This document shows, one piece after another, positions 12,309-46,864 of a DNA stretch of 64,000 bases. The stretch is from Takakia lepidozioides (lineage: Eukaryota > Plantae > Bryophyta), in assembly GCA_030704615.1 (NCBI GenBank), contig CM060731.1, forward strand, positions 12,338,001 through 12,402,000, given 5' to 3'. The translations under genes were made by a program, and so were the position numbers. The notes beneath the pieces were generated by a model. That model was not told where the DNA came from. It searched no databases and worked only from the letters and a program-made list of their open reading frames with translations. Each line of letters opens with the position of its first letter. The first letter of the stretch is position 1.

Positions 12309-12692
12309 CTATTGATCAGTTCGAGGGTGGGTGCCGAGGCCTTGGGATGATTGTGCATCGCGCACCTCGAAGGCAGATCGGGTCTTTACAACAACGTCGT
12401 ACATGTGCATTGTTTTTAAGCTCGAGAAGCTGACAGGCAGAGAGATGAGGTGCGGTATAGAGGAGCTCTTGTGGTACTGGCGCAGCTGCCTATCACCACC
12501 GTTGTATGGCCCCCACCCGAGCTGCAGCAGCTTGTCCTCCAGGTCCTCATACGACGTAATGGTCTCATTGGTGGCACAATACACCAACACCTTGCGCCGC
12601 ACATATGAAGGTTCCCCTCCATCGAGCCGCTGCGCCTGCGGATTGGCCACCAGCTTCGCTACTCCATCCTTGAAAACCCACACTCCCGACAT
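12309..12692 (-). CDS. FPF1-like: Flowering-promoting factor 1-like protein (127 aa, intronless)
   Basis: MSGVWVFKDGV...RRKVLVY..TNETITSYEDLE.KL..LGW...QYHK...LISLP..F...KTMHMYDVVVK.R..FEVRD is the FPF1 family signature. ATG at 12692; TATATATA near 12957-12966. Confidence 0.92.
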   Translation of the reverse strand: MSGVWVFKDGVAKLVANPQAQRLDGGEPSYVRRKVLVYCATNETITSYEDLEDKLLQLGWGPYNGGDRQLRQYHKSSSIPHLISLPVSFSSLKTMHMYDVVVKTRSAFEVRDAQSSQGLGTHPRTDQ

Positions 12693-21438: not shown

Positions 21439-21788
21439 TGTCAAGTTAAATAAACACAGTGTGAAACTAACTAGAATAAATCTAGTTATTTGTATTTAAC
21501 ACTTGGAATTAGTTCAAGTGTTAAGTCAGGTGTCAAATTTAGCTTGACACCTGAACCATCTTATCTTCACGAGCTCGTCAGTCGTGCGGCTCATCTCTCT
21601 CGAGTTGAGCCTGCACGACCGAGCTCCTTCACTGCTTAGAATCTAAGTGTGCTTATGAAGGGAGAATAGGATGTTGTGGGGTGGAGTCCCCATACCTTGG
21701 GGTGCCACTGGCTCGACTCTAGTTTTAATGAGTGATTGTGTTGTATTGAGTGTTTCTGTGTCAACAGTGTGAATCTAGTTTTCAATCA
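21439..21788 (+). repeat. Terminal repeat A1 of element B (350 bp, TG...CA)
   Basis: Reverse complement of 32255-32605. Confidence 0.92.
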
Positions 21789-22746
21789 CTCGAGAGAGAT
21801 GAGCTATCTAGTTTTCTAGTGCTAAGCTAGATATGATGTTTTTTTTTAAGCACTATTATAATATAACTTGGTAACCTATGAGTCTGCCCAGCGGAAGGAG
21901 CAACGCCGTCACGTTTGAAGGAGTAGCCAAGGCTCGCTGGAAGCTAGATGTGCAGGGGATCAATACTGATGCAGCAAGCAATGGAATGGGATTAATGCGG
22001 CTGCTGCTACGGGCAATGGACTGAGCGGGACTGTGAACAAGCTTGATAACGGACAAGCGCCGTAGGTAGCAGCAAGCGACAGATACCAAGATAGCTGCTG
22101 ACGAGGATGTACAGGCTAGAATGGGCAGGGAGCTCCACCGGCTGGTCCTAATGCAGGCCAACAGCTCTAGTGTGACCGGTGTGCATGCCTGCCAGAGCAG
22201 CAATCAAAGCAGCAAAGCAAACAGGGTTTTGATTTAGTCGCTACTAACCTTCGTTGCTCACCTCCTACTCTCTCAGATTGTACTGCCTTATGGTCTCTCA
22301 TCACTCGATGATGCTGGCCATCATTCAGATTTGAGTACTTCGTGTGTTTATCACTTGTTGGGCGATGGAGATGGAGAGAGGCGAGAGCGGGAAATGTGCG
22401 GGAAGCGGGCTCGCCAAAATATTGGCCTCCAAGGACCCCAAACAGCCCTCCAAATAGCCCTCCAAAGTGCTTCTTTGAAGAGGCATAAAGTGAATTTCTG
22501 ATTGACGATGGCGGAGTCTTTCCGGTGGTTTTGAAGCGGCTATTTGTTTGGAGGACGTATGGTGAGGCGGTATTCGTTGCATGTATGTTGCTTCTTTCGA
22601 TTTTTTTTGGTTGTACGTGGCTTCAGCGGGTTTGGTTCTTCCGACTCTGAGGCTTGGAGGCCGACTCTGGTTGTTGGCCAGCTTACGGGAACGATGTGAA
22701 GGTTCGATGGTTGATTATTCCTGGGTAGAGACTGACGAAGTAAGAT

Positions 22747-25348: not shown

Positions 25349-28300
25349 ATGGAGGAGATGTATGGAGCTACCAAGGGGCCTCGTAGGTACTCTGGAGCTG
25401 TGGGCACAATCAAGCTGGATGACTTTATCCAGGAGTTCGACAGCTGGTGTGATTTGCAGCAGATGCGCAATCCACAGCTGTTCACCCCATTCATGGCGTG
25501 GAAGGGACTGTTCCAGCATTTGGATGGCCCGCCTAGGGACGATTACCACGAGTTCAGGCGAGAACATGAAGCAAAGATTGAGGAGTGGAGGATGTATTGG
25601 TCACCTGACTACGTCTCCATTACTCGAGGCACGACGCGACCAGTAGCTGCATCAGCACCAATATCTCCCACTGCCAGCACTAGTAGTGGAACAAGTAGTG
25701 CCGGTACTTCTGCAGGTGGTACCAGTTCAAAAGGTGCTACTACTCCTCCTGCCACGACTACAACACATGCCTAGATTCAACCCGGTGGTGGAGTTCTTCC
25801 AGGAGTTGCGAACGAACTACCAAGGCGTACGGACAAAAAAGCTGCGAAGTTTGCAAGACTTCCAGCGCAAATCGAATGAGAGCCTACGATAGGCCTACAC
25901 TCGTATGAGGCGCTTGATAAGTGTGACCCAAGGGGTTACTGAAGCTCAGGCAATCCAGTTCTCGTATGGAATTTTGGACAAGGAGCTCAGGAGAAGGGTG
26001 CGGGATGCAACCCTGTTACAAGCAGCCCAACCCACATTAGCAGATGTGTTTCTGTTGGCTGAGCGGATTGAGCTCAACATGGTGGAGGAGCAAGTTGTTA
26101 CCATTGGATTTGACAAGGACATGCTTGCACGAGGCACAGCTACCAGCCTACAGGCACAAGGGACTGCCCAACAGCGTGGTCAGGGGGGCAAGGTTCCCCA
26201 ACCCAAATTTCATGGAGCTTACAGGGGACCTCAGGTGCAGAGGCCAGTAGCATCTTTTGCAGGCCAACAACAACCAGGGGTGGTATGTTGGACATGTGGA
26301 GGACCTCATATCAAGAAAGATTGCCCAAAGAGTGGCAAAAGGCCGGCACAAGCACAGCCTGCACAGTTGCAATGTGGGCATTGTGGCAAGTATGGGCATG
26401 GAGATGCCCAGTGTTATGACTTGCACCCTGAGTTGCGGCAAGGCCAGTTCCAAGGGAACAATGGTGCCCGAGGGCGAGGTGGAGTACCTCAAAGAGGACG
26501 AGGTGGTCAGGCACAAGGTGTAGGACGAGGGCAAGCACAGTATGGCCAAGGACGTGGAGGTCAGGGCATTGACCAAGGCATGGCCAACCGGCTTCAGCAA
26601 CTGGAGCAAAGGCTTGCTGCCATGGCCACAGCTCAGGTGGTACCAGCTCCAAGACCTGAGGGTCCACCTCATGTTCTTCCTCAGCAGCGTCATCCTGACG
26701 GAGGAGACATGGGAGGCATGGGATTTATGTGTGGGGCAGCACTACCACTAGTACAGGTGGAGTCTGCTGCAGCCGTCACTCGAGGAGCAGCACAAGTTCC
26801 TGAGCCACAAGGTGCAGAGGTGGAGTTAGATCCACAGCGTGGGGAGACAAGCCGTCAAACTAGGTTGCCTCAATCATTCACCTTGGGGGAGACAGTGTCG
26901 ATGACATCCATGGCACCTAGTTCTCGCCCGATAGATACAAATGCCGTTATTGTGCCATTGGGGAGAGCTACACGTGCAGCACTGACACCTGCTGCCAAGG
27001 CTAGTGCAGCCAGTGTGTTGTTGGGGGCAGCCACCTCTGTGTATCAGGCCCCACTGTTCTCGGCAACCATGATCGCGACGCCGGGGGTAAGACCAGCTGT
27101 AGTGTTCAGACTAGCAGCAACACTCTGTGAGAGTGGGGAGGTCACTTCATCTTCTGCGGAGTTAGTGGAAGGTGTAGTGGCAGAGGGATCCTCGGAATTG
27201 AGGGTCAAGACTGCCACAGCTGCGCCATGGCAAGCTGCAGCTGCCAGGTTGACAGAGCTGTCAGGTTGACAGAGCTGTCAGCTATGCCAGCATTTGAGCG
27301 CGCCATGGTGACACCTAGAGTTGTCTTGTTAGACAACCAGGATGACATTTTCTCTTTGAGTGGACCGGCAGGCAAGAAGTACCGGCCACTGCGGGTCTTG
27401 TTGGACTTGGGAGCTCAGCCACTGATGTTGGGCAGAGCTGCTATTGCAGGTTTGGGCCTCATGGAGGCGGATATGGAGCCTTGTCATTTCCAGATACAGA
27501 CATCTCTGGGAGGATCAGAGCAGGCTCGGGGCATGACACGGCGTGAGTTGGCCATTAGACTACAGCCGGATCACCCTAAAGATGGCTCAATGATGCGAGC
27601 CAAGGCCATTATGACAGATGCGGACTCTTACGATGTCCTCGTTGGTGGGGCAGTGTTATATCCCATGGGCTTCACCCTGGATTTTTGGAAGGAGTCAGCA
27701 TCCTACAGGCCTGGATGGCAGTCAGGGGATGGTCGTCGTGTACAACTCCCTGTAACATTCATTGGGGATGTTGCTGCTGCCCAGCGGGGCAAGATGCCAA
27801 CATTAGCAGCCTTCACAGCTGCAGTTAGTTGGCCTGGAGGGTTGCTGGAGGGCAATGCCCATGCAGAGGATGTGCCACCTCCAGCAAAGCAGGATGACAT
27901 GCATGGTACGGCGGAGTTTTCTGCCATGGTTGCTCACACTCCATTGTCGGGTACGAGCAATGATTTGCAGTAGGTTGCTGATAGACGGGTGCAACAAGCC
28001 TGGGTAGAGGCCTTCGTACCGTCAGGAGAGGAGGAGAATGCGGTGATTGCACCAGGACCACCTCAGTTGTCATCATTGGACACCACACCTTTTGTGTGGC
28101 AGTGCCCACATGAAGGCATATGCCTTCTGGACTTGTTTGGCGGGATCAGCACTGGATTGGCTGCAGTGCTGTAGGTAGGTGTATGAGTTCGACGTTACCT
28201 GTATGTAGAGAGGGATGAGACTGCACGACGCGTCTCACTGCGCCATGTTGCTCAGTTGGTACAGCAGTACCCTGATTTGTTGCCAGTGTTTCCAGTTCGT

Positions 28301-29340
28301 GGATACCAACAAGCATTGCCAGCAGACATCTCTTTGTTGGGGGCGCATGATTTGGAGCAGGTTGGCCTTGCCAAGGGCATTCATCAGCCGGGCACGGCAA
28401 TGGGTTACAAGACTTAAGGTCACGCCTGTTTTGGGAGATGTTGAGGGTCCTACGCTATTTACAGCTTCAGCAGACAGACTCTTCGGCATATATCTTGGAG
28501 AATGTGCCATTGATGGGTGATTCTCGGGCCAAGGTGATGGCCAGTGTGCATCAAGTGCGGTCTTGGTTTGGGTTAGCAGTGTTGCTGGATGCAGCTGCAG
28601 TGGGGTCACGGGCTCATCGCCCACGACTATGGTGGACCAACTTGATGCCACCTGCACTGTTCAAGCGTGCATTTGATGGGGTGTAGCGGCCACCACACCT
28701 GACGGTGGATAGCATTTTGGACATAGGGAGACAGACTCAGCGTGTGAGACACGATGACCGATCACCTTTGGCAGTGGTCAATAAAGTGGGTCACCCACGA
28801 GCCGCATTGCCTACACTGCTCAGTTTTTTAGGATCCCATGCTTTTCGGGATGGTGGACCTGGCCTCTTGTGGGATAGCCAGTTGCACCAATTAGTGGAGC
28901 CCAACGCTGACGAGCGCGAGCGGGCGATGGGTTTTACCACTGGTACCACGGCGGTGCCATCTCTTTCTGAGGCATCACGTCGTCAGGTGTTGGGGCAAGC
29001 AATGGATCTCAATTGCTTGACCTGGATTATCAGCTTGGCTATGGCTGAGCAGCGCCGAGTACGGAGTACACTTCCCTTGATGGTCTCTCTGCCTACCGAG
29101 ACGGTTCAGGCAGCGAGTGGGGGCGAACAGGTGAGGACCACGAGGTGCAGGCCGCATCCATGGCACACGTGGAAGGTGCTCGAGGTTCAAAAGGAATTGG
29201 CAGCCAAGGCGGCCGTGATGGATGAGGTTGGGGATTTTTCTCGGGTTGAGGAGGTCCTCAAGGATGGGATGATGGGGCAGGATGAGACATTGTCACTGAC
29301 AGAGGAGGCAGTGGTCACTGCTCAAGATATTGCAGCATAG
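25349..29340 (+). pseudogene. Element B gag (two zinc knuckles) - aspartic protease - DNMT3-like methyltransferase, disrupted
   Basis: CWTCGGPHIKKDC and CGHCGKYGHGDAQC; VLLDLGAQ (DSG mutated); LLDLFGGI, GWPCQG, ILENV, RPRLWWTN, ERERAMGF, RRQVLGQAM (DNMT about 28118-29050). Stops, a 17-bp duplication and a deletion are present. Confidence 0.9.
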
Positions 29341-31143: not shown

Positions 31144-31480
31144 TGAGGAGGCTCATCTTCTTAAAGTTGAGCCTCCATGAGCTTCTCTCACCTCCATAGC
31201 TCTAGGTATTGAGAGGGAGTGTGTTGAGGGCTTTGTAGGGTGGATTCCTTTAGCAAAGGTGCCCTTGGCTTGACTTAGTTTATGTGATAGAGTGGATTTC
31301 ACTTGGAAGGACTAGGGCTTGTTCTTCATGTGATTGCTTCATGCTTTGAGAGCTTTCATTGTCTTCTACTTCTCTCATTTCTCATCTCTTATCATTGTGG
31401 TATAGCGTTCTAGGATTGTGTACTTAGATTGTGTGGTGGACAACGATGTATGTTGTCACACGATGCTTAGGTGCACGACA
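31144..31480 (+). repeat. Inverted 3' end of element C: 3' part of A2 (31144-31394) + B2 (31396-31480)
   Basis: Matches the reverse complements of 44085-44335 and 33924-34008; followed by TSD ATCA at 31481-31484. Confidence 0.9.
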
Positions 31481-32168
31481 ATCATAAGAAAATACAAACC
31501 ATCATCGAGTGGATTAAACCAACTTCGGTCCGAGACGTACAATGTTTTCTGGGTTTTGCAAATTTCTATAGAATCTTCATCAATGACTACTCCAAAATTG
31601 TTGCACCATTGACACGACTCACAAGGAAGGACAAATTTGTATATGACGAGAAGGCTGACCAGACATTTGAAAGGCTGAAGCAGGCATTTACAATGGCTCC
31701 AATACTTGTACATGCAGACCCATCTAAACCATTCTTCTTAGAAGCAGATGCATCGGACTTTGCACTTGGCGCGGTACTCTCACAATACGGTACAGATGGC
31801 CGATTCCACCCTGTTGGTTTTCGTTCTCGCAAATTTTCCGCTGCGGAGATCAATTATGAAATCCATGACAAAGAACTTATAGCGATTATCGATGTTTTTG
31901 AGGAGTGGCGTCATCTATTGGAAGGAGCTAAACATCAGGTCACTGTCTATACCGATCACAAAAACCTCGAATATTTTATGAGTGCTCGTGTTTTGAATCG
32001 ACGTCAAGCGAGATGGAGTATGTCACTAGCAAGGTTTGATTTTGTTATTACCTACCGTCCCGGACATCTTCAAGGAAAACCAGATGCTCTTTCTCGACGA
32101 TCGTATCTTGCGCCAAAGGAAGGCGATGCAGCTTTTGACCAATAGAAATCCATCATCTTGAAACCAGC
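31481..32168 (+). pseudogene. Chromovirus RT-connection/RNase H segment (inverted)
   Basis: [53 protein letters not shown]; joins 44506 and 21438 in frame once the inversion is undone. Confidence 0.92.
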
Positions 32169-32692
32169 TGTCGTGCGCATACGTATCGCTACACAACTAC
32201 ATCGCTATCCAAACCACACCACACATATATGCACAATAAAGTAGTCTGCCACAATGATTGAAAACTAGATTCACACTGTTGACACAAAAACACTCAATAC
32301 AACACAATCACTCATTAAAACTACGAGTCGAGCCAGGGGCACCCCAAGCTATGGGGACTCCACCCCACAACATCCTATTCTCCCTTCATAAGCACACTTA
32401 GATTCTAAGCAGTGAAAGAGCTCGGTCGTGCAGGCTCAACTCGAGAGAGATGAGCCGCACGACTGACGAGCTCGTGAAGATAAGATGGTTCAGGTGTCAA
32501 GCTAAACTTGACACCTGACTTAACACTTGAACTAATTCCAAGTGTTAAATACAAATAACTAGATTTATTCTAGTTAGTTTCACACTGTGTTTATTTAACT
32601 TGATAGCTGTCGTGCGCATACGTATCGCTACACAACTACATCGCTGTCCAAACCACACCACACATATATGCACAATAAAGTAGTCTGCCACA
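32169..32692 (-). repeat. B1-A2-B2 3' terminus of element B
   Basis: 85-bp direct repeats 32169-32253 and 32608-32692 flank a copy of A (32255-32605). Confidence 0.92.
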
Positions 32693-32952
32693 ATCGCCCC
32701 CCTAGCTGGTGGTTAGGTCCATCTAACTCCAGATAGCTACAAGATGTAATAGCCACAGCCGTACGACGTCCTCTATCACTGTCCCTATTGTACTCAAACT
32801 CTATAGATCAAGAGGCCGGATACAAGAGTAGCCCCATCGTTAGTCGTCGTCTTGCAATCTGTGAACTTGAGTCAGGATCTCGTGTGTTTAAGGTCTCCTA
32901 GTAGCTTGGCCTTGCATTTCTTGTTAGCTTCCCATGGTTGTATCCACTCCCA

Positions 32953-33753
32953 CTATCCAATGCAATGCGGACATAACCAATCCCCATCAGGAACCATCTC
33001 AAGAGGTGGAGTCAAGCATCCCATATGCCAACCTCTAGAGCATTGATCACACACCAGCATGGTGGCTGCCCCTCTAGCAGACCCACACAACATGCACCTC
33101 AAACTTGCAGGTACCACTGCCAGGTTTGGGTCAACCCTTCCATCAACATTTGGAAGGTGACATGACGCACAATTACGCACATGGTCCTTCCAAATCATGC
33201 CATCCCGACCCTCCAAGATCACGACTCCTAAAGGGGAACACCTCTCGAACCCTCAAAATAGTACGTCCTGCAGTCACATCCAAGGTCGTAGGAGCAGTCT
33301 GCTGCAGATAAACATAGTCACCAGGGTTGAATCTCCGAACCCAGGACGATAGCCCCCACACGTATGGTAGCATACCTCAACGTATCACGATGTTGTGCAA
33401 TGGCAAGGTTCTCGAAAGCCATGGGCATGACTTTCTTGAATAACTCTGCACGCTGATCACATGCACGTGCCCACACGTCCGGATTGTCAAGGTCAAGAAC
33501 TGTAGCAGCTTCTCTACGAATGGATGTAGGCAAATCCGGCTCTCGGCCAAAGAGAAGAAAGTATGGTGAGAAGGAGGCAAGTGATGATTGCTTGCTGAAC
33601 CTGTAGCCCATGGCTAACCGGGGTAACTGAAGGTCCCAATATCCTAGGTGTCCCTTCTGCAAGCCATACTTGTGCAAACCCCTCTTTACTGTCTGAACAA
33701 CCCTCTCTGCCAAGCCATCGGCCTCAGGATGATCCCGAGAAGTGGTGCGGTGG
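32953..33753 (-). pseudogene. Element B integrase C-terminus with PHD finger
   Basis: DGLAERVVQT...SPYFLLFGR; CMLC..MLVCDQC..WHMGCL.PPL..VPDGDWLCPHC. Confidence 0.92.
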
Positions 33754-34265
33754 ACTCACAAGAGGAAAACCTATCTCCATGTCTCAAGTGAGGCTCGACA
33801 CCTCACTTGGCATGTGAGACCAAATGAAGTCCCAACACACAAAATATAAATATAAATATCTAAAATGTCCTAGTTAACTAGAAGTAGGTAATTCTAGATA
33901 ACCATGACTAAAACCATGACAGCTGTCATGCACCTAAGCATCGTGCCACAACATACATCGATGTCCACCACACAATCTAAGCACACAATCCTAGAAAGCT
34001 ATACCACAATCGCCCCCCTAGCTGGTGGTTAGGTCCCTCTAACTCCAGATAGCTACAAGATGTAATAGCCACAGCCGTACTAAGTCCTCTATCACTGTCC
34101 CTATTGTACTCAAACTCTATAGACCAAGAGGCCGGGTACAAGAGCAACCCCATCGTTAGTTGCCGTCTTGCAATCTGTGAACTTGAGTCAGGATCTCGTG
34201 TGTTGGTCTCCTAGTAGCTTGGCCTTGCATTTCTTGTTAGCCTTCCATGGTTGTATCCACTCCCA

Positions 34266-37200
34266 CTATCCAATGCAATGCGGACATAACCAATCCCCAT
34301 CAGGAACCATCTCAAGAGGTGGAGTCAAGCATCCCATATGCCAACCTCTAGAGCATTGATCACACACCAGCATGGTGGCTGCCCCTCTAGCAGACCCACA
34401 CAACATGCACCTCAAACTTGCAGGTACCACTGCCAGGTTTGGGTCAACCCTTCCATCAACATTTGGAAGGTGACATGGCGCACAATTACGCACATGGTCC
34501 TTCCAAATCATGCCATCCCGACCCTCCAAGATCAGACTCCTGAGGGCAACACCTCTCGAACCCTCAAAATAGTACGTCCTGCAGTCACATCCAAGGTCGT
34601 AGGAGCAGTCTGCTGCAGATAAACATAGTCACCAGGGTTGAATCTCCGAACCCCAGGACGATAGCCCCCACCACGTATGGTAGCATACCTCAACGTATCA
34701 CGATGTTGTGCAATGGCAAGGTTCTCGAAAGCCATGGGCATGACTTTCTTGAACAACTCTGCACGCTGCTCACATGCACGTGCCCACACGTCCGGATCGT
34801 CAAGGTTAAGAACTGTAGCAGCTTCTCTGCGAATGGATGTAGGCAAATCCGGCTCTCGGCCAAAGAGAAGAAAGTATGGTGAGAAGGAGGCAAGTGATGC
34901 TTGCTTGCTGAACCTGTAGCCCATGGCTAACCAGGGTAACTGAAGGTCCCAATCTCCTAGGTGTCCCTTCTGCAAGCCATACTTGCGCAAACCCCTCTTT
35001 ACTGTCTGAACAACTCTCTCTGCCAAGCCATCGGCCTCAGGATGATCCCGAGAAGTGGTGCGGTGGTCTATCAAGGCCTTGTCACACAAAGCCTGAAACT
35101 CCCCCAAGAACTCTCTCCCTTGGTCCGTGAGTACCTCAGCTGGAGCACCGAATCGGCTAAGCACACAATCCAAGAATGCATACGCAGCTCCCTCACTAGC
35201 CTTATCAGGCAATGGAACCAATTCAATCCACTTGGAGAAGTGCTCCACCATCACCAACACGTACTTGTTGTGGCGCATGGTCAGTGGCAACGGCCCTGCG
35301 AAGTCAAGACTCCACCTGTAGCCCAATCCCATGATCGGAAGAGGGTGCAATTGTGGAGTAGGGGCGTTGAATGAAGCACGCACCCTGTCACACACCATGC
35401 ACCTAGCCACAAATTGTTGCACCTCTGTGTGCATACCACGCCACCAATACTGCCCCTGCAGTAGACTATGAGTGCGTCGCACCCCAAAATGCCCCAACTC
35501 CTCATGGGCATGCCGCACTAACCGTGCCCGCTGTGTTGGGTGAGGCACAATCCTCACTCGACCATCCTCCCACACTCGGAGCAGGTGTGTCCCCTCCCAC
35601 TTGAACCTCTTGGCTCGTTGTAGGATCCGATCCCTCTCCTTGGCAGTCACAGTGGCTGCAGTGTCTCCAGTGCGGAGGTAGTCCAACACAACTGAATCCT
35701 CATGTATATCTTTGGCGCCACCTTGCTCATTGCTGGCCTCAGGGTCCTCAGACACTTGATCTACAGTCATCCCTGTTGCAGGTCCAACCTGGCCTTCCGC
35801 TGCCAAGATACACAGAAATGCAGATGCATGCCATCCGGGCACCATCTCCTCGTCCGTCTCACCATGCCACCGAGCTCCAGTGTCATCCTGCTGGCTCGTG
35901 CATGGATTGCGACTCAACCCATCTGCATTGCGATTGACCAAACCCGGTCGATGCACCACCTGAAAGTCATACTCTTGAAGGATGAGTGCCCACCGTGCAA
36001 GCTTCCCCGTAAGCTTGTCTGACTCCATCAACCACTTGAGTGGTTGGTGATCCGTGACAAGGGTGAAGAGATTGCCGTATAGATAGCACCTGAAGTGTGC
36101 CACGGCCCACACTGCAGCTAAGCATTCTCCCTCATATGAGCTATACTTAGACTCTGCAACGTTGTTCGAGCGGCTAGCATAAGCCACTACGAACTCTCTT
36201 CCCTCATCATCCACCTGTGTGAGCACCGCTCCAAGCCCCAGCATGCTCCAATCTGTATGCAGCTGAAAAGGACGCCCCCTGATAGGTCGTCTCAAGATGG
36301 GCGCCGAGGTCAACCTCGCCTTGAGCTCTTGAAAAGCTTGTTCTTGCTCATCTTCCCACTGCCACTCCTGGTCCACCTTGGTCAGCTTGGTTAGAGCCTT
36401 TGCAATGGCACTAAATCCCTTAACAAACCGTCTATAATAGTTTGCTAACCCCATGAAAGCTCGAACTCGGCTCACATCCGTGGGGCGTGGAACCTGTGCA
36501 ATGGACTCTACCTTAGTCTGCTGTACCCCCAATCCTCCAGGATATATCATGTGACCCAGATACTCAATCTGGTTGTGGAAAAACTTGCACTTTCCCGGAT
36601 GTAACTTCAATCCGTGCGCCCTCAAGCGCTCAAATACCCCCTGAAGGTGTCTCTCATGCTCTTCCACCGTAGCACTAAAGATGATGATGTCATCTATGTA
36701 GCACCGAGCAAACTCCACCCCTGCTAGAATCCTGTCCATGACTCTCTGAAACTCTGCCGGAGCGTTCTTAAGCCCAAATGGTAAGAACCGCCACTGGTAT
36801 AGGCAATCCTTCCCGTGCTCATTGATCCCCCAGAATGCGTCTTTTGCTTATCCGCCTCCTTGATCGGCAACTGGTGATATCCGGATCGTAAATCCAACGT
36901 GCTAAAGACCTTGGCATGCCCAATGGCATCAAAGATCTCCTCTGGTGTTGGCATGGCATACCTATCGGACTTGGTCTGACGATTTACAGGCCGGTAATCA
37001 CCGCACATACGTCTCTCCGTCCAATTGCCAAAGACATCCTTCTTGGCTGGCATCACTGTGGCTGAAGCATACTCTCCCCCAGATAGCTCCACCAAACCAG
37101 CCTCCCAAAGGTCCTGAGTTCTCATCTGAATCAAGGACCTCTCCATGTCACTGTATCTATAGGGTCTCCGAAAGATTGGCGTGTCAGTAGCCAATTCAAT

Positions 37201-37398
37201 GCGAATCTCTTGACCCTTCAGTGCTCCTAAGTCCTTCAAACTGAAGGCAAAGCAGTTCCTGTAAGCCCTCAAGAACCGCCGTATACGTCGTCTCTCTCCT
37301 CCGGTGACTATAGGTCCAACATCAGGCTCCCAGTTGTCCTCCGTGACTGCAACCTTGAGTCCAGCAGGCTTAGAGGTAGAAGACGCGTCCCGTGGTTG
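34266..37398 (-). CDS. Element C pol: RT - RNase H - integrase (HHCC, DDE) - PHD finger, with two 1-nt frameshift lesions
   Basis: YIDD; HEELGH...CMVC; WSLDFAGP, LTDQGREF, GLAERVV; C4HC3 PHD at about 34272-34409. Confidence 0.93.
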
Positions 37399-39411
37399 CT
37401 ATGCTGCAACCTCTTGAGCAGTGACCACTGCCTCCTCTGTCAGTGACAATGTCTCATCCTGCCCCATCATCCCATCCTTGAGGACCTCCTCAATCCGAGA
37501 AAAATCCCCAACCTGATCCATCACCGCCGCCTTGGCTGCCAACTCCTTCTGAACCTCGAGCACCTCCCACGTGTGCCATGGATGCGGCCTGCACCTCGTG
37601 GTCCTCACCTGCTCGCCCCCACTCGCTGCCTGTACCGTCTCGGTAGGCAGGGAGACCATGAAGGGAAGTGTACTCCGTACTCTGCGCTGCTCAGCCATAG
37701 CCAAGCTGATAATCCAGGTCAAGCAATTGAGATCCATTGCTTGCCCCAACACCTGACGACGTGATGCCTCAGAAAGAGATGGCACCGCCGTGGTACCAGT
37801 GGTAAAACCCATCGCCCGCTCGCGCTCGTCAGCATTGGGCTCCACTAATTGTTGCAACTGGCTATCCCACAAGAGGCCAGGTCCACCATCCCGAAAAGCA
37901 TGGGATCCTGGGAAGCTGAGCAGTGTAGGTAATGCTGCTCGTGGTTGACCCACCCTGTTGACCACTGCCAAAGGCGAACGGTCATCGTGTCTCACACGTT
38001 GAGACTGCCTCCCTGTGTCCAAAATGCTATCCACTGTGAGGTGTGCTGGCCGCTGCACCCCATCAAATGCACGCTTGAGCAGTGCGGGTGGCATCAAGTT
38101 AGTCCACCATAGCCGTGGACGATGAGCCCATGACCCCACTGCAGCTGCATCCAGCAACACTGCTGACCCAAGCCACGACCGGACTTGATGCACACTGGCC
38201 ATCACCCTGGCCCGAGAATCACCCATCAGTGGCACATTCTCCAAGATGTATGCTGGAGATACAGCTTGATGAAGCTGCAAGTGGCGCAAAATCCGCACCA
38301 TCTCCCAAAACAGACCCGTCCTCGAGTCTCGCAATCCATTGCCATGCCCGGCTGATGAATGCCCTTGGCAGGGCCAACCTGCCACTACCAGATCAATGGA
38401 GCCAACCCGCTCCAAATCCTGCGCCCCCAGCAACGAAATGTCTGCTGGCAAGGCTTGTTGGTATCCACGAACTGCAGACACTGGCAACAAATCAGGGTAC
38501 TGCTGTACCAACTGAGCAACATGGCGCAGTGAGACGCGTCGTGCAGTCTCATCCCTCTCCACATACAGGTAACGTCGAACTCGTACACCTGCCTGCAGTA
38601 CTGCAGCCAATCCAGTGCTGATCCCGCCAAACAAGTCCAGAAGGCATATGCCTTCATCCGGGCACTGCCACACAAGAGGTGTGGTGTCCAATGGCGACAA
38701 CTGAGGTGGTCCTGGTGCAATCACCGCACTCTCCTCTTCTCCTGACGGTACGAAGGCCTCTACCCAGGCTTGTTGTACCCGTCCATCAGCAGCCTGCTGC
38801 AAATCCTTGCTCGTACCCCATAATGGAGTGTGAGCAACCATGGCAGGCAACTCCGCCGTACCATGCATGTCATCCTGCTCTGCTGGAGGTGGCACATCCT
38901 CTGCATGGGCATTGCCTTCCAGCAACTCTCCAGGCCAACTAACTGCAGCTGTAAAGGCGGCTAGTGTTGGCATCTTGCCCCGCTGGGCAGCCGCAATACC
39001 CCCAATGAATGTCACAGGGAGCTGTGCACGACGACCATCCCCTGACTGCCATCCAGGCCTGTAGGATGCTGACTCCTCCCAAAAGTCCAGGGTGAAGCCC
39101 ATGGGATATAACACTGCCCCACCAACAAGGACATCGTAAGAGACCGCGTCTGTCACAATGGCCTTGGCTCGCATCACTGAGCCATCTACAGGATGATCTG
39201 GTTGTAGTCCAATGGCCAACTCACGCCGTGTCATGCCCCGAGCCTGCTCTGATCCTCCCAGAGATGTCTGTATCTGGAAAGGACAAGGCTCCATATCCGC
39301 CTCCATGAGGCCCAAACCTGCAATAGCAGCTCTGCCCAACATCAGTGGCTGAGCTCCTGAGTCCAACAAGACCCGCAGTGGCCGGTACTTCTTGCCTGCC
39401 GGTCCACTCAA
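37399..39411 (-). CDS. Element C aspartic protease + uninterrupted DNMT3-like C5 cytosine methyltransferase (DNMT about 37690-38650)
   Basis: VLLDSGAQ; motif I LDLFGG, II YVERD, IV AGWPCQG, VI ILENV, VIII RPRLWWTN, IX ERERAMGF, X RRQVLGQAM, all in one 670-aa open frame. Confidence 0.93.
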   Translation of the reverse strand: MSGPAGKKYRPLRVLLDSGAQPLMLGRAAIAGLGLMEADMEPCPFQIQTSLGGSEQARGMTRRELAIGLQPDHPVDGSVMRAKAIVTDAVSYDVLVGGAVLYPMGFTLDFWEESASYRPGWQSGDGRRAQLPVTFIGGIAAAQRGKMPTLAAFTAAVSWPGELLEGNAHAEDVPPPAEQDDMHGTAELPAMVAHTPLWGTSKDLQQAADGRVQQAWVEAFVPSGEEESAVIAPGPPQLSPLDTTPLVWQCPDEGICLLDLFGGISTGLAAVLQAGVRVRRYLYVERDETARRVSLRHVAQLVQQYPDLLPVSAVRGYQQALPADISLLGAQDLERVGSIDLVVAGWPCQGHSSAGHGNGLRDSRTGLFWEMVRILRHLQLHQAVSPAYILENVPLMGDSRARVMASVHQVRSWLGSAVLLDAAAVGSWAHRPRLWWTNLMPPALLKRAFDGVQRPAHLTVDSILDTGRQSQRVRHDDRSPLAVVNRVGQPRAALPTLLSFPGSHAFRDGGPGLLWDSQLQQLVEPNADERERAMGFTTGTTAVPSLSEASRRQVLGQAMDLNCLTWIISLAMAEQRRVRSTLPFMVSLPTETVQAASGGEQVRTTRCRPHPWHTWEVLEVQKELAAKAAVMDQVGDFSRIEEVLKDGMMGQDETLSLTEEAVVTAQEVAA

Positions 39412-41573
39412 AGTGAAAATGCCTCCTGGTTGTCTAACAAGACAACTCCAGGTGTCACCATGGCGCGCTCAAAGGCTGGCCTAGCTGGCAGCTCCGTCAA
39501 CCTGGCAGCTGCAGCTTGCCATGGCGCAGCCGTGGCAGTCTTGACCCTCAAATCCGAGGATCCCTCTGCCACTACACCTTCCAGTAACTCCGCAGAAGAT
39601 GAAGTGACCTCCCCACTCTCGCAGAGTGTTGCTGCTAGTCTGAACACTGCAGCTGGTCTTACCCCCGGCGTCGCAATCATGGTTGCCGAGAACAGTGGGG
39701 CTTGACACACAGAGGTGGCTGCCCCCAATAACACACCGGCTGCACTAGCCTTGGTAGCAGGTGTCAGTGCTGCACGTGTAGCTCTCCCCAATGGCATAGT
39801 AACCTCCGCCTCGGTAACAGTCGGGCGAGAACTAGGTGCCATGGATGGCGTCGACACTGTCTCCGCCAATGTGAATGACTGAGGAAGCCTCGCCTGACGG
39901 CTTGCCTCCCCACGCTGTGGATCCAATTCCACCTCTGCACCTCGTGGCTCAGGAACTCGTGCTGCTCCTCGAGTCACGGCTGCAGCAGACTCCACCTGCA
40001 CTAGTGGTAGTGCTGCTCCGCACATGAATCCCATGCCTCCCATATCTCCTCCCTCAGGAGCAGGAGGTGGACCATCCCGCCTGGGAGCCGGTACCACCTG
40101 AGCTGTAGCCATGGCAGCGAGCCTCTGCTCTAGCTGCTGAAGCCGGTTGGCCATGTCCTTGGTCAACACCCTGACCTCCGCGTCCTTGGCCATGTTGAGC
40201 TTGCCCTTGGCCTGCACCTCGTGCCCGACCACCTCGTCCTCTCTGGGCTGGTCCACCTCGCCCCCGGCCACCATTGTTCCCTTGGAACTGGCCTGGGCGC
40301 AACTCAGGATGCAAGTCATAACACTGGGCATCTCCATGCCCATACTTGCCACAATGCCCACACTGCAACTGTGCAGGCTGTGCTTGTGCCGGCCTTCTGC
40401 CACTCTCTGGGCAATCTCTCTTGACATGGGGTCCTCCACATGTCCAACATATCACCCCTGGTTGCTGTTGGCCTGCAAAAGATGCCACGGGCCTCTGCAC
40501 CTGAGGTCCCCTGTAAGCTCCATGGAACTTGGGTTGGGAACCTTGCCCCCCTGACCACGCTGTTGGGCAGTCCCTTGTACCTGTGGGCTGGCAGCTGCAC
40601 CTCGTGCAGGCATGTCCTTGCCAAATCCAATGGTAACAACTCGCTCCTCCACCATGTTGAGCTCAATCCGCTCAGCCAGCAGAAACACATCCGCTAATGT
40701 GGGTTGGGCCGCTTGTAACAGGGTTGCATCCCGCACCCTTCTCCTGAGCTCCTTGTCCAAAATTCCATACCAGAACTGGACTGCCTGAGCTTCAGTAACC
40801 CCTTGGGTCACACTTATCAAGCGCCTCATACGAGTGTAGGCCTCTCGCAAGCTCTCACTGGATTTGCGCTGGAAGTCTTGCAAACTTCGCAGCTTCTCTG
40901 TCCGTACACCTTGGTAGTTCCTCCGCAACTCCTGGAAGAACTCCACCACCGGGTTGAATCTAGGCACATGTGTTGTAATTGTGGCAGGAGGAGTAGTAGC
41001 ACCTTTTGAACTGGTACCACCTGCAGAAGTGCCGGCACTACTTGTTCCACTACTAGTGCTTGTAGTTGGAGATGTTTGTGTAGCTGCTGGTGTCACCGCT
41101 GCCCTTGTGCCTCTAGTGATTGAGACATAGTTAGGTGACCAATACTCTCGCCACTCCTCAATCTCCACCGCATGTCCCCGCCTAAATTCATGGTAATCAT
41201 CCATGGGCGGCCCCTCAAGGTGCTGGAATAGCCCCTTCCACGCCATAAAGGGCGTAAACAGTTGTGGATTGCGCATTTGCTGCAAATCACACCAACTGTC
41301 AAACTCTTGTATAAAGTCATCAAGCTCGATGGTGCCCACAGCTCCAGAGTACCTACGTGGCCCCTTGGTAGCTCCATACATCTCCTCCATCGTGTCCCAC
41401 AACAATGGCACGGAAATGACTTGCACCCTCGGCGAGAATCCTCCTGACTCCGAGTCTGAACCTTCCTCAGAAGACACTGAAGGTGAAAGTGGCCTAAACC
41501 GCACACCTTGTCTTGTGTACCCACTAGTATCGCTGGTGCTTGTACCGGCACTCCCCTCAGCAGCTGGTGGCAC
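39408..41573 (-). CDS. Element C gag (capsid-like region, two zinc knuckles, RGG/Q-rich tract), with frameshift lesions
   Basis: ORFs 40452-41573, 40054-40500 and 39408-40439 are collinear with element B gag; CWTCGGPHVKRDC and CGHCGKYGHGDAQC. Confidence 0.88.
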
Positions 41574-42230
41574 CTCCGTGATGAAAACTCACAACCCAAC
41601 CGGTTGTCAACCTGTCTCTAATCCCCACTTTCTACAAGGTAACCGGGTAGAGAACCTGTTGCGGCTACTGGTTCAAGCAGGAATAATAGGTTTCTAACGT
41701 ACTGTACCTGCACCTGCATCCACCGCAAGCACTCCTATGGTCTGCTGGTCATCAACCCAGCCTCACCATAGAAGAAACACTGGTGGTCTTGCTGGTCATC
41801 ACTCCAGCCTCACCACCGACAGCATACTCTAGGATTGGCCGGTGATCAAATCCGGACCAACCTCCTATGAAAACAAGCGCCCACACAAAGCTAACATGGC
41901 GCACAGTCAAGCATGCAGGTGTGGAGGGGATCCAAACACAAGAAAATCAAGACAGCAACTCCCCCACACCAAAAACACTCCACAGTGTCGCTCCTGCAAG
42001 GACACCCCAGCCCAAACCCGGACTGACTCTTGCCTCCACCTACGGAAAGGTTTTGGCCTACAGAGAGGGTGAAAGACTATGGAGAAGAGAAACTAAAGCA
42101 ATTCCTAACCCCAGAATGCTCTCATCCCACCACTCTCCCTCCTGTCTCTATCCACTCGCTTGTATGGCCGTGGCAAGTATCCTTCAATATCCCTCAATCA
42201 ATCTTCAAGAGCTCTTCAACATTGTCCACC

Positions 42231-42385: not shown

Positions 42386-42778
42386 GATACCTTAACAGAG
42401 GTATAGTCTGAGGTTGCTAGGGTCCCTTATGTTGATGATACCTTTACAGAGGTATAGTCTGAAAATGAGGGTTCTGTTTGGTATACTAACAGAGGTATAG
42501 TCTGAGCTGATTAGGGTCCACATATGGTGATACCTCAACAGAGGTATAGTAAAAGGGACAAGCTCCTGTTTGGTATACTAACAGAGGTATAGTTGAGCTG
42601 ATTAGGGTTCACATATGGTGATACCTCAATAGAGGTATAGTAAAATGGACAAGCTCCTGTTTGGTATACTAACAGAGGTATAGTCTCACATTAGGGTTCA
42701 CATATGGTGATACCTCAACAGAGGTATAGTCAAAGGGACAAGCTCCTGTTTGGTATACTAACAGAGGTATAGTCTGAG
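42386..42778. repeat. Nine-copy array of a palindromic ATACCTC-AACA-GAGGTAT(AGT) core, about 45-bp period with about 91-bp higher-order dimer
   Basis: acagaggtatagt recurs 9 times with two alternating linker types. Confidence 0.9.
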
Positions 42779-44084
42779 CATACACTACTAGGGTTTGTAA
42801 TGAAGAGCTAGAATGCAAGTCCTTGACTTCTATGCTTCTACTCAAGCAAAAATATGGTCTCTAGGTGGTCATAAGAGGCATCTTCTTGCTCTCTTCCACC
42901 CCAATGTGCAACCAAGAGTGGTCCAACTCAACTTGCAAGTCATTGTCCACCAAATCAATCCCCCTTCTAGTCCTTGGGATTTGATTGCAAACTACCATAT
43001 CTCCATTGCCGAGCAATCATGCATTTGTCTCCTCATCACTTGACAATTGCTCCAAATCAACACAAATTATCTCAATGTGTAGGAGCAATGCTTGTCACTT
43101 ACAATAATGCTCCCAAGCAATCCGCCTTGGATCCCACTCTCACGCCATATGCCTCATTTGGGGTCTTGCACCAATCCATCATCCATGTGCTCCCCGTGGT
43201 CATTTGAATGCATGTTTCATGACCTCTTGGCCTATGTGTTGCTCTCCTTCATCATAACATGAATCAACACCTCTCCACTTCACACACAAATGGATCTCAA
43301 AGGCCTTCACCTCTTGCTAGTTCAAGAGCTCCCCTTCTCAAACTTGAACTTACAAACTCAAGCGAGCATGCTCCACACATGCACCACTTGCTTGGTCAAC
43401 TATCCACCACAAAGCTCGCACTACCAAGAGCATGAATAGCCAAGTATTGCCTCCCCCTCTTGTCACATTACATAGTTAGGGTGAAGCTATGCATACATTG
43501 AATGATGATTTCCCTTCAAGGATTTCCCACCACATGTTCTCCAAGCCCTTCCAATGGCACCCTAAGCTTGGCTCCACACCACCATGATTGGAAGATTTCT
43601 TCACATGCTCCCTTTCAAAACTCTTGAGCTTCTTAGTGCTCTCCAAGTGCTTGCCCTTGTTGTCTTCAAGCCCAAGCATATATAGCTCCTTGGCTTCTCT
43701 TCCACAACATCCACACTTTGAACTTGCTTAACCCTAGCACTAGTGAAATGAGCACTAACAAGCCTTTAGTCACTCTCCACAAGCCATGGCGCACACCATC
43801 GACTCCATAATGCATACAAAGGATTCTCAAACCCTAGAATCCATGCTTCCACACACACAAGACTTCCTCCTTACAATCCTTGCAAAATCTTGTGACTCAA
43901 GAGCTTTCTTCTCAAGCTCTCCAACTCCTTGGTGCATGCAATACTCGAGCACCTTTCCTTGCAACCCCTTGCAAGCCTTGTGATACAAGAGCTAAATTCT
44001 CCTAGCTCTCAACCTCTTTAAAATACAAGTGCAAAACTAATCCTTACACTCCGCACTCACAAGCATAAGGTGATCTTCTTATAG

Positions 44085-44505
44085 TGATAAGAGATGAGAA
44101 ATGAGAGAAGTAGAAGACAATGAAAGCTCTCAAAGCATGAAGCAATCACATGAAGAACAAGCCCTAGTCCTTCCAAGTGAAATCCACTCTATCACATAAA
44201 CTAAGTCAAGCCAAGGGCACCTTTGCTAAAGGAATCCACCCTACAAAGCCCTCAACACACTCCCTCTCAATACCTAGAGCTATGGAGGTGAGAGAAGCTC
44301 ATGGAGGCTCAACTACAAGAAGATGAGCCTCCTCAACACTCACAAGGGGAAAACCTATCTCCATGTCTCAAGTGAGGCTCGACACCTCACTTGGCATGTG
44401 AGACCAAATGAAGTCCCAACACACAAAATATAAATATAAATATCTAAAATGTCCTAGTTAACTAGAAGTAGGTAATTCTAGATAACCATGACTAAAACCA
44501 TGACA
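44085..44505 (-). repeat. Terminal repeat A1 of element C (421 bp, TG...CA)
   Basis: Matches 33754-33921 plus the reverse complement of 31144-31394. Confidence 0.92.
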
Positions 44506-46864
44506 TGATCCATAAAGACGCATTTGTCGGAAATAATGTAGCCCAAAAATTCGACCTCAGATTGATGGAAAAGACATTTCTCCAACTTGACATATAATCA
44601 TCTTTCTCTTAATTTATCAAGGACAAGGCGTACATGGTGGCCATGTTCTTCTTCGTTCTGTGAAAATATCAAAATGTCGTCCAAATAGATGACTACAAAG
44701 TCATCTAAAAATTCTCGAAAGATGTCATTCATCATATGTTGGAAAGTTGCTGGAGCATTTGTAAGACCGAAAGGCATAACACTGTATTCAAAATGTCCAT
44801 ACCTTGTTCGAAAAGTTGTTTTCCATTCGTCTCCTTCTTTTATCCGTACAAGGTTATAAGCTCATCTCAAGTCGATTTTGGTGAAAATCTTCGCTCATCC
44901 CAGCTGGTCGAGAAGCCCAGAAATCAGCAGCAACGGATAACGATTCTTGATTGTGACTTTGTTGAGACCGCGATAGTCGACACACATGCGTAATGATCCG
45001 TTCTTCTTTTTCACAAACAAGATAGGCGCCCCCGCGGGTGATTTGGAATGTCGGATGAAGTGCTTTGACAAATTTTCATCAATGTATTCGCGTAATGCAG
45101 CCAACTCCGTCTGGGATAAGTTATAGATTGGGGCGAATGGTGGTTGGGCTCCTTCTTGCAAGTCAATTGCACAGTCATAAGGTCGATGTTCTGGCAATAT
45201 GTCTGCATTTTTCTTCTCGAAGACATCTTTGAAATCTTGATATTGAGCGGGTAATATTGACGTATCTTTGTCTGTTGTGGTCTTGATCGGAGTCGCATAA
45301 AGTGCAAATGTCGCCTCTTTTTTGGTAGCTCTCATGAAGGCTCTAGCTCCAAGAAACAGGGGATGAATACCTTTGGTACTTTTGCATTTTTGTCTTGCCG
45401 AAATTTTTCGTGATTGCTAGTCGATGTCAGAATTATGAGGTACAAACCAGGGAAGTCCAAGGATCACAGGATTCGTTGGGGACTGGATGACATTGAAAAC
45501 AATCTATGATGCTTGATTTTTAAGCTTCACTTCAAGGGGTCGAGTTTCATGGTCAACATTTCCTGATGCTAACGGTCGTCCATCGATAACTTCAATAGGG
45601 GCCGATAATTTCTTTCTTACGAGCGTTAAATTGTGTTGCTTCGCAAAGTCTTTGTCAATAAAACACGCTGAAGCGCCCGAGTCCAAAAGTGCTTCTACGG
45701 AGATATGTCGATTTTGCATCCTGATCTTTACTGGAACTGTGAAACAAGATACAGGGTCTGGAGGTAGAAAGAGACATTTTTTTGATGAGGAATTTGGAGT
45801 GTCCAGCCGCATGGTCCCTACTGTGACTGGACATCTTCGTTTTCCGACCTCCTCGTATCGAACACTTGAGTGGTGCCCCGAGCTTTGAATCTTCTCTTGT
45901 TGGGGCAGTTTAATGCCATGAGATCATTTTCTCCGCAATAAAGGCATAATCCATTCGAGCGTCGTCTTTGTTTTTCATGTGGCGTCAATGGCTTGAATCG
46001 GACAGCATCAATTTGCATAGGAACATTACCGGATGTCTGATGGATCGTTGTATTTGGTGCCGTAGTAGCAGCGGCATGGTGCGTCGTCGACCATCCGGAT
46101 CGTTTTTCTTGACGTCTTTCGAACAAACGATTATCGCATGCAATGACTTGGGTGATGAATTCGCTCAGTGTACTCACGTTTGACATTGTCAGCAACAAAT
46201 CTTTAACATCATCTTTTAGGCCACATCGAGATTGACTAATGAGGCTCTTCTCATTCCAGTCAAGGTCGCACGCAAGTTGTCGAAATTCGGCAGCATAAAC
46301 GGAAGTTGGACATGCTCCTTGTTGAAGATTTTGCATCTTTGTCTCTGCAATTCTCTCTCTATCATTCTCTCCAAACGTTGCAGTGAACTCGGACATGAAC
46401 GCTTCAAAATTGTATAGTAAATGCGAATTTTTCTCTAATAGCGGTGCAAACCAAGACAGGGCAGTGCCTGATAGAAGGGTGCCCACGAATCCCACTTGAA
46501 TACCTTCATCAGAGTAGTGTTGTGGATGTAGTCGTAGGAACAATCGTACTTGTTGAACAAAACCGTGAAATCTTCATCTCGTCCCATCAAATTTCTCGGG
46601 CATGCTGACATTTGGTTCCCTTGTAATCTATTGAAGATTTGGAGGAACCGTTGCAGTAGGATTTGTTGTAGTAGGGACTCGTAAGGTTGAAGATCCATTG
46701 TTCGACTCCTTCAACTCTGAAATTTGTTGTTGCAAATTGTTGAGAGCATTGCCAAGGTCTTGAGACTGATCAGCTTGTAGTTGGGCAGTAGAAGCACGAA
46801 GTTCTTGCATCTGGAGCTGAAGGCTCTGCAATGGGGTGACCATTTCCGCAAATGTGCCTTCCAT
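44506..46864 (-). pseudogene. Chromovirus gag - protease - RT N-terminus
   Basis: Coiled-coil N-terminus; retrotrans_gag LLSGTALSWF...YAAEFRQLA; PMQID; CLYC knuckle; ALLDSGA; [11 protein letters not shown]; [10 protein letters not shown]. Confidence 0.92.

Follow-up and report, generated by a model that had tools for sequence, protein, structure and literature searches.

A DNMT3-encoding Ty3/gypsy retrotransposon of the KnitGypsy-Dnmt3 kind in Takakia lepidozioides, with a conserved stop before reverse transcriptase and split terminal repeats

The 64,000-nucleotide stretch of Takakia lepidozioides DNA analysed here (GenBank assembly GCA_030704615.1, contig CM060731.1, positions 12,338,001 to 12,402,000 of the forward strand; hereafter the window) carries two copies, elements B and C, of a retrotransposon that encodes a DNMT3-like cytosine methyltransferase. 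Along the element the order is Gag, protease, methyltransferase, a stop codon, reverse transcriptase (RT), RNase H, integrase and PHD finger. The order of gag, protease, RT, RNase H and a DDE integrase (rve and H2C2 domains) is that of Ty3/gypsy elements, as are the TG...CA termini, the polypurine tract (PPT), a short target duplication and a predicted primer-binding site (PBS) of the self-complementary type. Scans of the element for a tyrosine recombinase gave no match, rve and H2C2 being found instead, which separates it from DIRS, PAT and Ngaro elements. It is near certain that this is a Ty3/gypsy retrotransposon of the KnitGypsy-Dnmt3 kind residing in a land plant, and the identity of its methyltransferase domain is equally near certain. 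A preliminary description of this DNA had taken element C for a Ty3/gypsy element. The domains bear this out, but the coding region does not lie between two identical direct long terminal repeats (LTRs): the left end is a repeat A1 and the right end is B1-GC-A2-B2, or B1 alone. Nor is element C intact as a whole, since five frame breaks lie outside the methyltransferase (three between gag and protease, one in RT and one between integrase and the PHD finger); both window copies are defective. That description had seen the methyltransferase but made no mention of the stop codon, the PHD finger, the split repeats or the self-priming site.

A single open minus-strand frame (37399-39468, 689 amino acids) holds the protease motif LDSGA followed by all seven C5-methyltransferase motifs in the canonical order that had been claimed for them. 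The domain matches the PF00145 profile with 48.7 bits (cut-off 22, E 9.6e-13), and it has motifs I, IV (PC), VI (ENV), VIII (RxR), IX and X of cytosine methyltransferases together with a predicted Rossmann fold. Its nearest solved relatives are DNMT3A, DNMT3B and DNMT3C, both with the single sequence (E 6e-11) and with a profile (E 7e-22). DRM2 (E 6e-7), DRM-type and bacterial enzymes rank behind them in the profile search, and no DNMT1, MET1 or CMT entry is found among its 57 solved-structure matches. A structure model built from 70 sequences (predicted local distance difference test score 94.9) was matched by Foldseek to DNMT3A with a template-modelling score of 0.73 (E 1e-19). The earlier view of it as like DNMT3 rather than MET1, CMT or DRM is thus upheld by sequence, by predicted fold and by the non-permuted order of the motifs. 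The decayed copy reported at the same position in element B is also present, with stops in all three frames across 28091-29100. The methyltransferase had further been described as intact inside the polyprotein; it is indeed open and lies behind the protease, but a conserved stop separates it from RT.

The key residues of the domain are widely retained. Of the 116 near-full domains in the alignment (106 distinct, counting that of the window), 112 keep the catalytic Cys, all 116 the Glu of ENV, and 112 and 111 the two Arg residues of motif VIII; these residues and the Phe/Gly of motif I are retained although the sequences are just 35-77% identical. Ratios of nonsynonymous to synonymous substitution (dN/dS) were obtained by a Nei-Gojobori-type count with Jukes-Cantor correction. 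The ratio is 0.25 between elements C and B, 0.10-0.13 among the relatives L020, L021 and L034, and has a median of 0.19 over 280 pairs with dS>1. These values support purifying selection on the methyltransferase at depth. That it is a family trait, as the preliminary description had proposed, is likewise supported.

The methyltransferase frame closes at a TAG (37399-37401) located 110 residues past motif X and ahead of RT, a stop that element B shares (29338-29340). For a survey of this site the best 80 of 168 loci were fetched, 59 of which span the methyltransferase to RT; elements B and C bring the set to 61 sequences. In 54 of the 61, TAG or TAA followed by CAR stands at the same place, at the start of the RT frame, and the same holds for L098. 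Degradation or a shift affects the remaining seven, with in-frame passage through the site in none of them. The sequence UAG-CAR-YYA is the tobamovirus (Type I) readthrough consensus (PMC2194720, PMC3159437), and it is fitted exactly in both window copies and in L006, L020, L021, L034 and L098. Marchantia proteins of 1278-1281 amino acids end after motif X without RT. Likewise, many predicted relatives of 1228-1775 amino acids terminate 72-196 residues past motif X, RT being absent. A conserved stop in a CAR context before RT suggests that synthesis of Pol likely needs readthrough and that the methyltransferase would be made at Gag levels. A downstream 3′ stem of the type described in PMC3159437 is at most a candidate feature. 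A similar long-range stem folds in six sequences, with z-scores of 0.24 and 0.93 in the window copies and of -2.4 only in L020 and L034. Its cognate pairing splits two groups but not the members within them, 0-58 of 500 shuffles reach the same score, other downstream windows do better, and 19 of 62 rows were dropped without an anchor.

The ends of the element are arranged in an unusual way. Self-comparison and the 4-bp duplication show that, once an inversion of about 31145-33754 is undone, C and B each read A1-coding-B1-GC-A2-B2. This inversion exchanged the right ends of B and C, and about 430 bp of the B integrase are gone at the breaks, one of which falls within a few bases of the self-primer copy in A2. 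The same A-coding-B-GC-A-B layout with 4-bp duplications is found in four other insertions (L045, L068, L074/L078 and L025). A short form, A-coding-B, also occurs with duplications. The B1/A2 joint is a palindrome, (C/T)GACA-GC-TGTC, which is kept even in the distant L099, an element of different architecture; it is found after a PPT in L014, L020, L034, L098 and L099, in the last of these 240 bp past the tract.

The bases directly 3′ of A1 are predicted to pair with a stretch 150-195 nucleotides inside A, over 12 bp in C, 16 in B, 14 in L045, 15 in L020 and 13 in L098. Each of the five has its own sequence in the same geometry, and compensatory changes separate L020 from L098. Tf1-type self-priming is characterised by a PBS that can pair with part of the 5′ repeat, here with covariation over five sequence variants. 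The PPT adjoins the start of B1. With the PBS after A and the PPT before B, each end of a cDNA made by standard LTR reverse transcription would be B-GC-A. Since the PBS follows A1 and the PPT precedes B1, the replicative LTR would be B-GC-A, which suggests that the integrated copy is a permutation of the replicative form, opened at the internal GACA-GC-TGTC palindrome. Furthermore, an A-to-B joint must form in each cycle, because B2 would be absent from the RNA-derived template and both the linear product and the one-LTR circle lack this joint. The coordinates of all these features are collected in Table 1.

Table 1. Features of elements C, B and E in the window (window coordinates).
Feature	Coordinates	Strand	Remarks
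Element C left 4-bp target-site duplication, ATCA	44506-44509	-	identical four bases at 31481-31484
Element C repeat A1, 421 bp, begins TGTCA, ends TCA	44085-44505	-
Predicted self-primer, inferred 5′ end of RNA; pairs with PBS over 12 bp including one G-U	44313-44324	-	same pairing in 4/300 shuffles
Predicted PBS directly 3′ of A1, without TGG start	44073-44084	-
gag region; two zinc knuckles (from 40449 and 40362), three broken frames	39408-41588	-	PF03732 E 0.0014, below cut-off
Aspartic protease motif LDSGA	39352-39366	-	PF13650 E 0.0059, below cut-off
DNMT3-like C5 cytosine methyltransferase domain, open	37690-38670	-	catalytic Cys codon 38368-38370
Methyltransferase motif LDLFGG	38640-38623	-
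Methyltransferase motif YVERD	38565-38551	-
Methyltransferase motif GWPCQG	38379-38362	-
Methyltransferase motif ENV	38241-38233	-
Methyltransferase motif HRPRLWWTN	38124-38098	-
Methyltransferase motif ERERAMGF	37827-37804	-
Methyltransferase motif RRQVLGQAMD	37761-37732	-
In-frame TAG then CAA-CCA (CAR-YYA readthrough consensus), between methyltransferase and RT	37393-37401	-
RT, RNase H, DDE integrase (H2C2, rve)	34532-37398	-	one frame break near 36840
PHD finger, integrase C-terminus	34269-34409	-	PF00628 45.1 bits, cut-off 24; one frame break upstream near 34530
PPT directly before B1	34011-34019	-
Repeat B1, 87 bp, ends TGACA	33924-34010	-	81/87 identical to B2
Internal palindrome TGACA-GC-TGTCA at B1/A2 junction; predicted integrase attachment site	33917-33928	.
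Repeat A2, first part	33754-33921	-	167/168 identical to A1
Repeat A2, second part, displaced by inversion of about 31145-33754	31144-31393	+	248/251 identical to A1
Repeat B2, right end of element C, ends CGACA, then ATCA	31394-31480	+
Element B repeat A1, with predicted self-primer (21589-21604) and PBS (21789-21804), 16 perfect bp	21439-21788	+	0/300 shuffles
Element B decayed methyltransferase region, closing in same TAG-CAA-CCA	27996-29340	+
Element B right end after inversion: PPT (32695-32703), B1, junction (32601-32612), A2, B2	32169-32703	-	flanks GTTG and GCTG, 3/4 match
Element E, ordinary Ty3/gypsy, ~560-bp direct LTRs; received B and C insertions	18896-47466	-	LTRs 94% identical

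These features can be combined into one mechanism, which we consider reasonably probable as a whole: Pol made by readthrough, self-priming, end-joined cDNA cut at the internal palindrome, and CG methylation by the element's own methyltransferase. Very probably, most ribosomes would end after the methyltransferase, leaving it at Gag levels, while a minority would read UAG-CAR through to Pol. We hold with high confidence that the RNA would begin inside A1, that its 5′ end would pair with the site right after A1 in the Tf1 manner, and that the plus strand would start at the tract before B1, resulting in B-GC-A at both ends. The right A end would then probably be joined to the left B start, as in a 2-LTR circle, and integrase would nick after CA on both strands of the left GACA-GC-TGTC, producing TG...CA ends and a permuted copy. 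Two such nicks on opposite strands of the palindrome would leave ends processed in the usual way, with an overhang of two bases. For foamy virus, integrase has been reported to cleave palindromic 2-LTR junctions (PMC1180852). During an extended extrachromosomal stage the abundant methyltransferase may well methylate the new DNA at CG, so that the copy would arrive already marked, and the PHD finger may steer integration by histone marks; this last step seems to us about as probable as the joining.

Several observations weigh against parts of this mechanism. As regards priming, a search of L099 gave no self-primer of at least 10 bp, and 12 of the 17 moss-like left ends have eroded pairing, with 10-12 of 14 positions left. 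As regards the joining, opening at the right palindrome is expected too if the circle is symmetric, and it would produce A-B-GC-A-coding-B, but B-GC precedes none of 17 distinct left ends. Either an unexplained bias or a non-circular join is needed. We can only speculate that protection of the earlier-made right palindrome, perhaps by the methyltransferase, would account for cutting on the left alone. A non-circular join is offered by a scheme in which RT, on completing the A end, switches by way of a one-base overlap to the B start at the opposite end, the linear product then being trimmed by integrase at two palindromes. Such a jump would explain the absence of A-B-GC-A left ends, as well as the near-uniform sequence with a shared A at seven of the nine distinct A2-B2 joints. 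Moreover, about 11 distinct copies end at B1, two of them (L028 and L056) with both ends and matching 4-bp duplications, which fits trimming of plain linear cDNA. These short copies, however, are equally explained by a one-LTR circle or by later recombination between B1 and B2. The other two of the nine joints carry extra bases, and one of them retains nine PBS bases; such filler resembles end-joining, which it therefore fits. We regard the polymerase jump as unlikely.

Methylation of the element's own cDNA is the most likely role of the methyltransferase, and the only hint of it in the sequences is CpG depletion. CpG across codon positions 3-1 is at 0.30 of expectation in C and at 0.94 in the neighbouring element E, but it is also at 0.37 in the host gene region; in L020 and L034 it is at 0.32-0.62. 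Because host genic DNA is depleted as well, this remains a weak hint of the target. The enzyme could instead act chiefly in trans, on host DNA or other copies, to mark target sites or as self-limiting silencing. Gag-level synthesis would far exceed what a single cDNA needs, the PHD finger is a link to chromatin, and a brake on transposition is discussed by de Mendoza 2018 (PMC5890265). On the other hand, fusion to Gag and protease would put the methyltransferase in the particle, and the depletion is found in the element and not in neighbour E. Action chiefly in trans appears rather improbable.

We give a similarly low weight to the possibility that the stop is a true terminator and that Pol comes from re-initiation or from a spliced or internal RNA. 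The strict CAR-YYA context is present in only 6 of the 54 sequences with the stop. A large moss-like group, 46 of the 54, reads CAA-CCC-ATG, which is one base off and has an in-frame ATG at codon 3 that would allow re-initiation. Furthermore, some relatives, including Closterium, have no stop (P0262, P0263, P0482, P0488 and P0483), and the counts are not independent, most of the 80 loci sharing a few dataset prefixes. The in-frame gag/pol stop of Tca2 gave no readthrough in yeast (PMC2194720). Against a terminator, the first in-frame Met past the stop is at codon 85 in the window and 117 in L020, both inside RT, and at codon 48 in L006, although it is as near as codon 14 in L034. Re-initiation is therefore disfavoured in the window, but this argument does not reach the moss-like group. 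In addition, CAR is kept although the neighbouring residues diverge, and three Marchantia gene models that bridge the stop use three different junctions. Readthrough is retained as the likely source of Pol.

That the methyltransferase lacks catalytic activity and serves as a structural part or to bind DNA, or that it is a passenger in decay, is quite improbable. The Klebsormidium domain showed no methylation in yeast, a result that its authors call inconclusive; the DNMT3 domains of SymbioDIRS methylated CG in yeast (PMC5890265). Among 93 close pairs dN/dS is 0.87, and over 1785 pairs with dS of 0.1-0.3 it is 0.54, compared to 0.40 for RT; the methyltransferase is thus less constrained than RT in these copies, most of which are dead. 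Near-neutral ratios in close pairs are expected, since copies decay after insertion. The retention of the motif residues in sequences as little as 35% identical and the ratios of 0.1-0.2 at depth argue against this reading. Finally, misassembly or ordinary LTR elements nested by chance, as the source of the A-B-A-B layout, are suggested only by the scrambling of the window right ends by inversion. This reading is already largely refuted by the four other insertions with the layout and duplications, by the A-to-B joint in run X1 contigs, and by the DIRS-like repeats in the published Klebsormidium legend (PMC5890265). Run X1 also contains the empty-site joint 31481/44510, with four letters shared.

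Relatives of the element occur in bryophytes and green algae. Named relatives, mostly 57-76% identical, come from Marchantia polymorpha, M. paleacea, Riccia sorocarpa, Calypogeia fissa and three Sphagnum species; ferns, lycophytes, hornworts and seed plants are absent from the named relatives listed. Ten further representatives include four from Closterium, one from Klebsormidium nitens and one from Scenedesmus, so that chlorophytes are among the hosts. At E 1e-30 or better 555 clusters (50% identity) were obtained, the best 150 of which were inspected. In trees of element-borne methyltransferase domains, the window domain is sister to the liverwort and moss sequences (clade support 100). Two architectures occur, both mostly with a terminal PHD finger, which is in frame with integrase in L020, L034 and L098. 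Elements with the methyltransferase before RT form a single RT clade (13 of 87 rows, support 100); in the other 74 rows of the RT tree, Scenedesmus included, it lies between RNase H and integrase. A viral origin of the methyltransferase was rejected: the matches to 17 viral loci are weak (E 5e-15 or worse), all but one of them covering just part of the domain, and a second scan gave none. A bacterial origin was likewise rejected, the two strong matches among 12 genome loci being whole retroelements in cyanobacterial bins. These two, L098 and L099, belong to the family, and the proteins P0019 and P0191 also carry bacterial names; binning contamination is the likely explanation. The assembly of L098 is a 9.16-kb circle in which B-GC-A occurs once, perhaps through collapse of a repeat. 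L099 (122-9916; 10033-12171) has one frame of 3265 amino acids with the methyltransferase between RNase H and integrase, and an extra frame of 713 amino acids without a Pfam match. The single protein P0197 carries PHD, PF12237 and PF00145 domains and recalls dual-methyltransferase elements. Five Marchantia 'hypothetical proteins', Mp4g09160, MpVg00370, MpVg00540, Mp5g06330 and Mp5g06860 (P0124, P0200, P0201, P0207 and P0208), are all Gag-protease-methyltransferase frames of the family.

The rest of the window agrees with a land-plant host. The flanking genes had been called land-plant in type, and this is borne out by an FPF1-like gene (12309-12692, minus strand), of which every named relative is from a land plant and none exceeds 63% identity, and by the named bryophyte homologues of the element. 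A MULE-like transposase remnant lies at 771-2152 on the plus strand (PF10551 E 0.0026, below cut-off), a degenerate array of approximately 10-bp TGTAACCC-type units with strong C skew at 15190-17050, and a pyruvate kinase-like exon at 60360-60830 on the minus strand (PF00224 E 0.0014). No methyltransferase was found in the scanned frames of element E. The 5′ leader of element C contains four 91-bp tandem repeats (42411-42773). A short leader motif around GATCACCGG upstream of gag, at about 24895 (plus strand) and about 41850 (minus strand), was spotted by eye; it is common to B, C and the 3′ part of the distant L098, and is possibly a packaging or dimer signal.

Why transposons keep DNA methyltransferases is an open question, and the published cases are in algae with few tools. 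Many full-length Gag-protease-methyltransferase frames of the family are found in Marchantia polymorpha, which makes the question testable; Marchantia methylation mutants exist (bioRxiv 10.1101/363937). The conserved stop implies that the methyltransferase is needed in bulk and not at enzyme levels. A permuted LTR would go against the standard teaching that the termini of the cDNA are where integrase acts, and it touches on the question of 2-LTR circles as a potentially productive form. As their two ends are not one LTR pair, such elements would likely be missed by programs that search for LTR pairs, and frames of the family sit in annotations as host hypothetical proteins or are misfiled in bacterial genome bins. 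More tentatively, and with rather more doubt than confidence, the elements might form a green-plant-wide class with DDE integrase in which opening of end-joined cDNA at an LTR-internal palindrome is the normal route and a Gag-level DNMT3 marks the cDNA, possibly shielding the right palindrome. If true, this would explain what transposon-borne DNMTs do and would show, in the model plant Marchantia, circles serving naturally as productive intermediates.

The closest known system is KnitGypsy-Dnmt3 of Klebsormidium nitens (de Mendoza 2018, PMC5890265), described as having Gypsy domains, a non-permuted DNMT3-like domain under purifying selection and DIRS-like repeats. The present element shares the Gypsy domains, a homologous DNMT3-like domain and split, DIRS-like repeats. 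The K. nitens protein GAQ93235.1 is 38% identical to the window over 322 amino acids (E 5e-63) with the same order of zinc knuckle, protease and methyltransferase; the protein is partial and ends 9 amino acids past the methyltransferase. The Klebsormidium methyltransferase falls outside the 100%-supported clade that contains the window domain, on a long, weakly placed branch. The host there is an alga and here a land plant. The paper places the DNMT in the Pol frame with RT and RNase H, whereas here a conserved stop cuts the methyltransferase from RT, and its available text contains no PBS, PPT, palindrome, target duplication, PHD finger or replication model. Its species table includes Physcomitrella and Selaginella, and liverworts and Sphagnum are absent from it. 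PMC12344493 and bioRxiv 10.64898/2026.05.21.726589, from the same group, cite the streptophyte element just as previously reported; the latter lists 'streptophytes (Gypsy-DNMT3)' as previously described, and its available text gives no match for 'land plant' or 'bryophyt'. In the literature searched, which lacks most subscription journals and Repbase reports, we found no paper on land-plant copies or on six Marchantia gene identifiers, nor on readthrough in this element or on split or permuted repeats in an integrase-bearing element. The earlier remark that no characterised land-plant example was known agrees with this, but the element is not an independent novelty, given the Klebsormidium homologue with the same protease-methyltransferase order.

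Other systems share single traits with the element. PAT/Ngaro-type elements and SymbioDIRS-Dnmt3 have the A-coding-B-A-B layout, and SymbioDIRS bears a CG-active DNMT3 (PMC5890265). However, they use a tyrosine recombinase, unlike the DDE integrase (rve, H2C2), TG...CA ends, PPT and 4-bp duplications found here. In Tf1/Sushi and Tcn1 (PMC4600332, PMC6317226) the bases that directly follow the 5′ repeat can pair with an internal part of that repeat, but these elements have two ordinary LTRs and chromodomains in place of permuted repeats, a PHD finger and a methyltransferase; the available text of PMC6317226 names no lineage with that combination. The UAG-CAA-CCA of the window is an exact match to the Type I consensus of tobamovirus-type readthrough, whereas the in-frame stops of SIRE1, MuLV and Tca2 lie after gag or before env and not after protease and methyltransferase. 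As in foamy virus (PMC1180852), integrase is proposed here to open a CA-NN-TG palindrome in end-joined DNA; there the palindrome is the LTR-LTR joint and its opening restores the linear form, whereas here it lies inside the LTR and would give a permuted insert. EpiLTRs/DAM-LTRs (bioRxiv 10.64898/2026.05.21.726589) are also LTR elements with DNA methyltransferases and a chromatin reader, but their DNMT is sister to DNMT4 and, together with DAM and a chromodomain, occupies the 3′ end of pol. The kind of element is thus already known as KnitGypsy-Dnmt3, to which the present analysis adds its land-plant range, the conserved stop and the permuted-LTR model.

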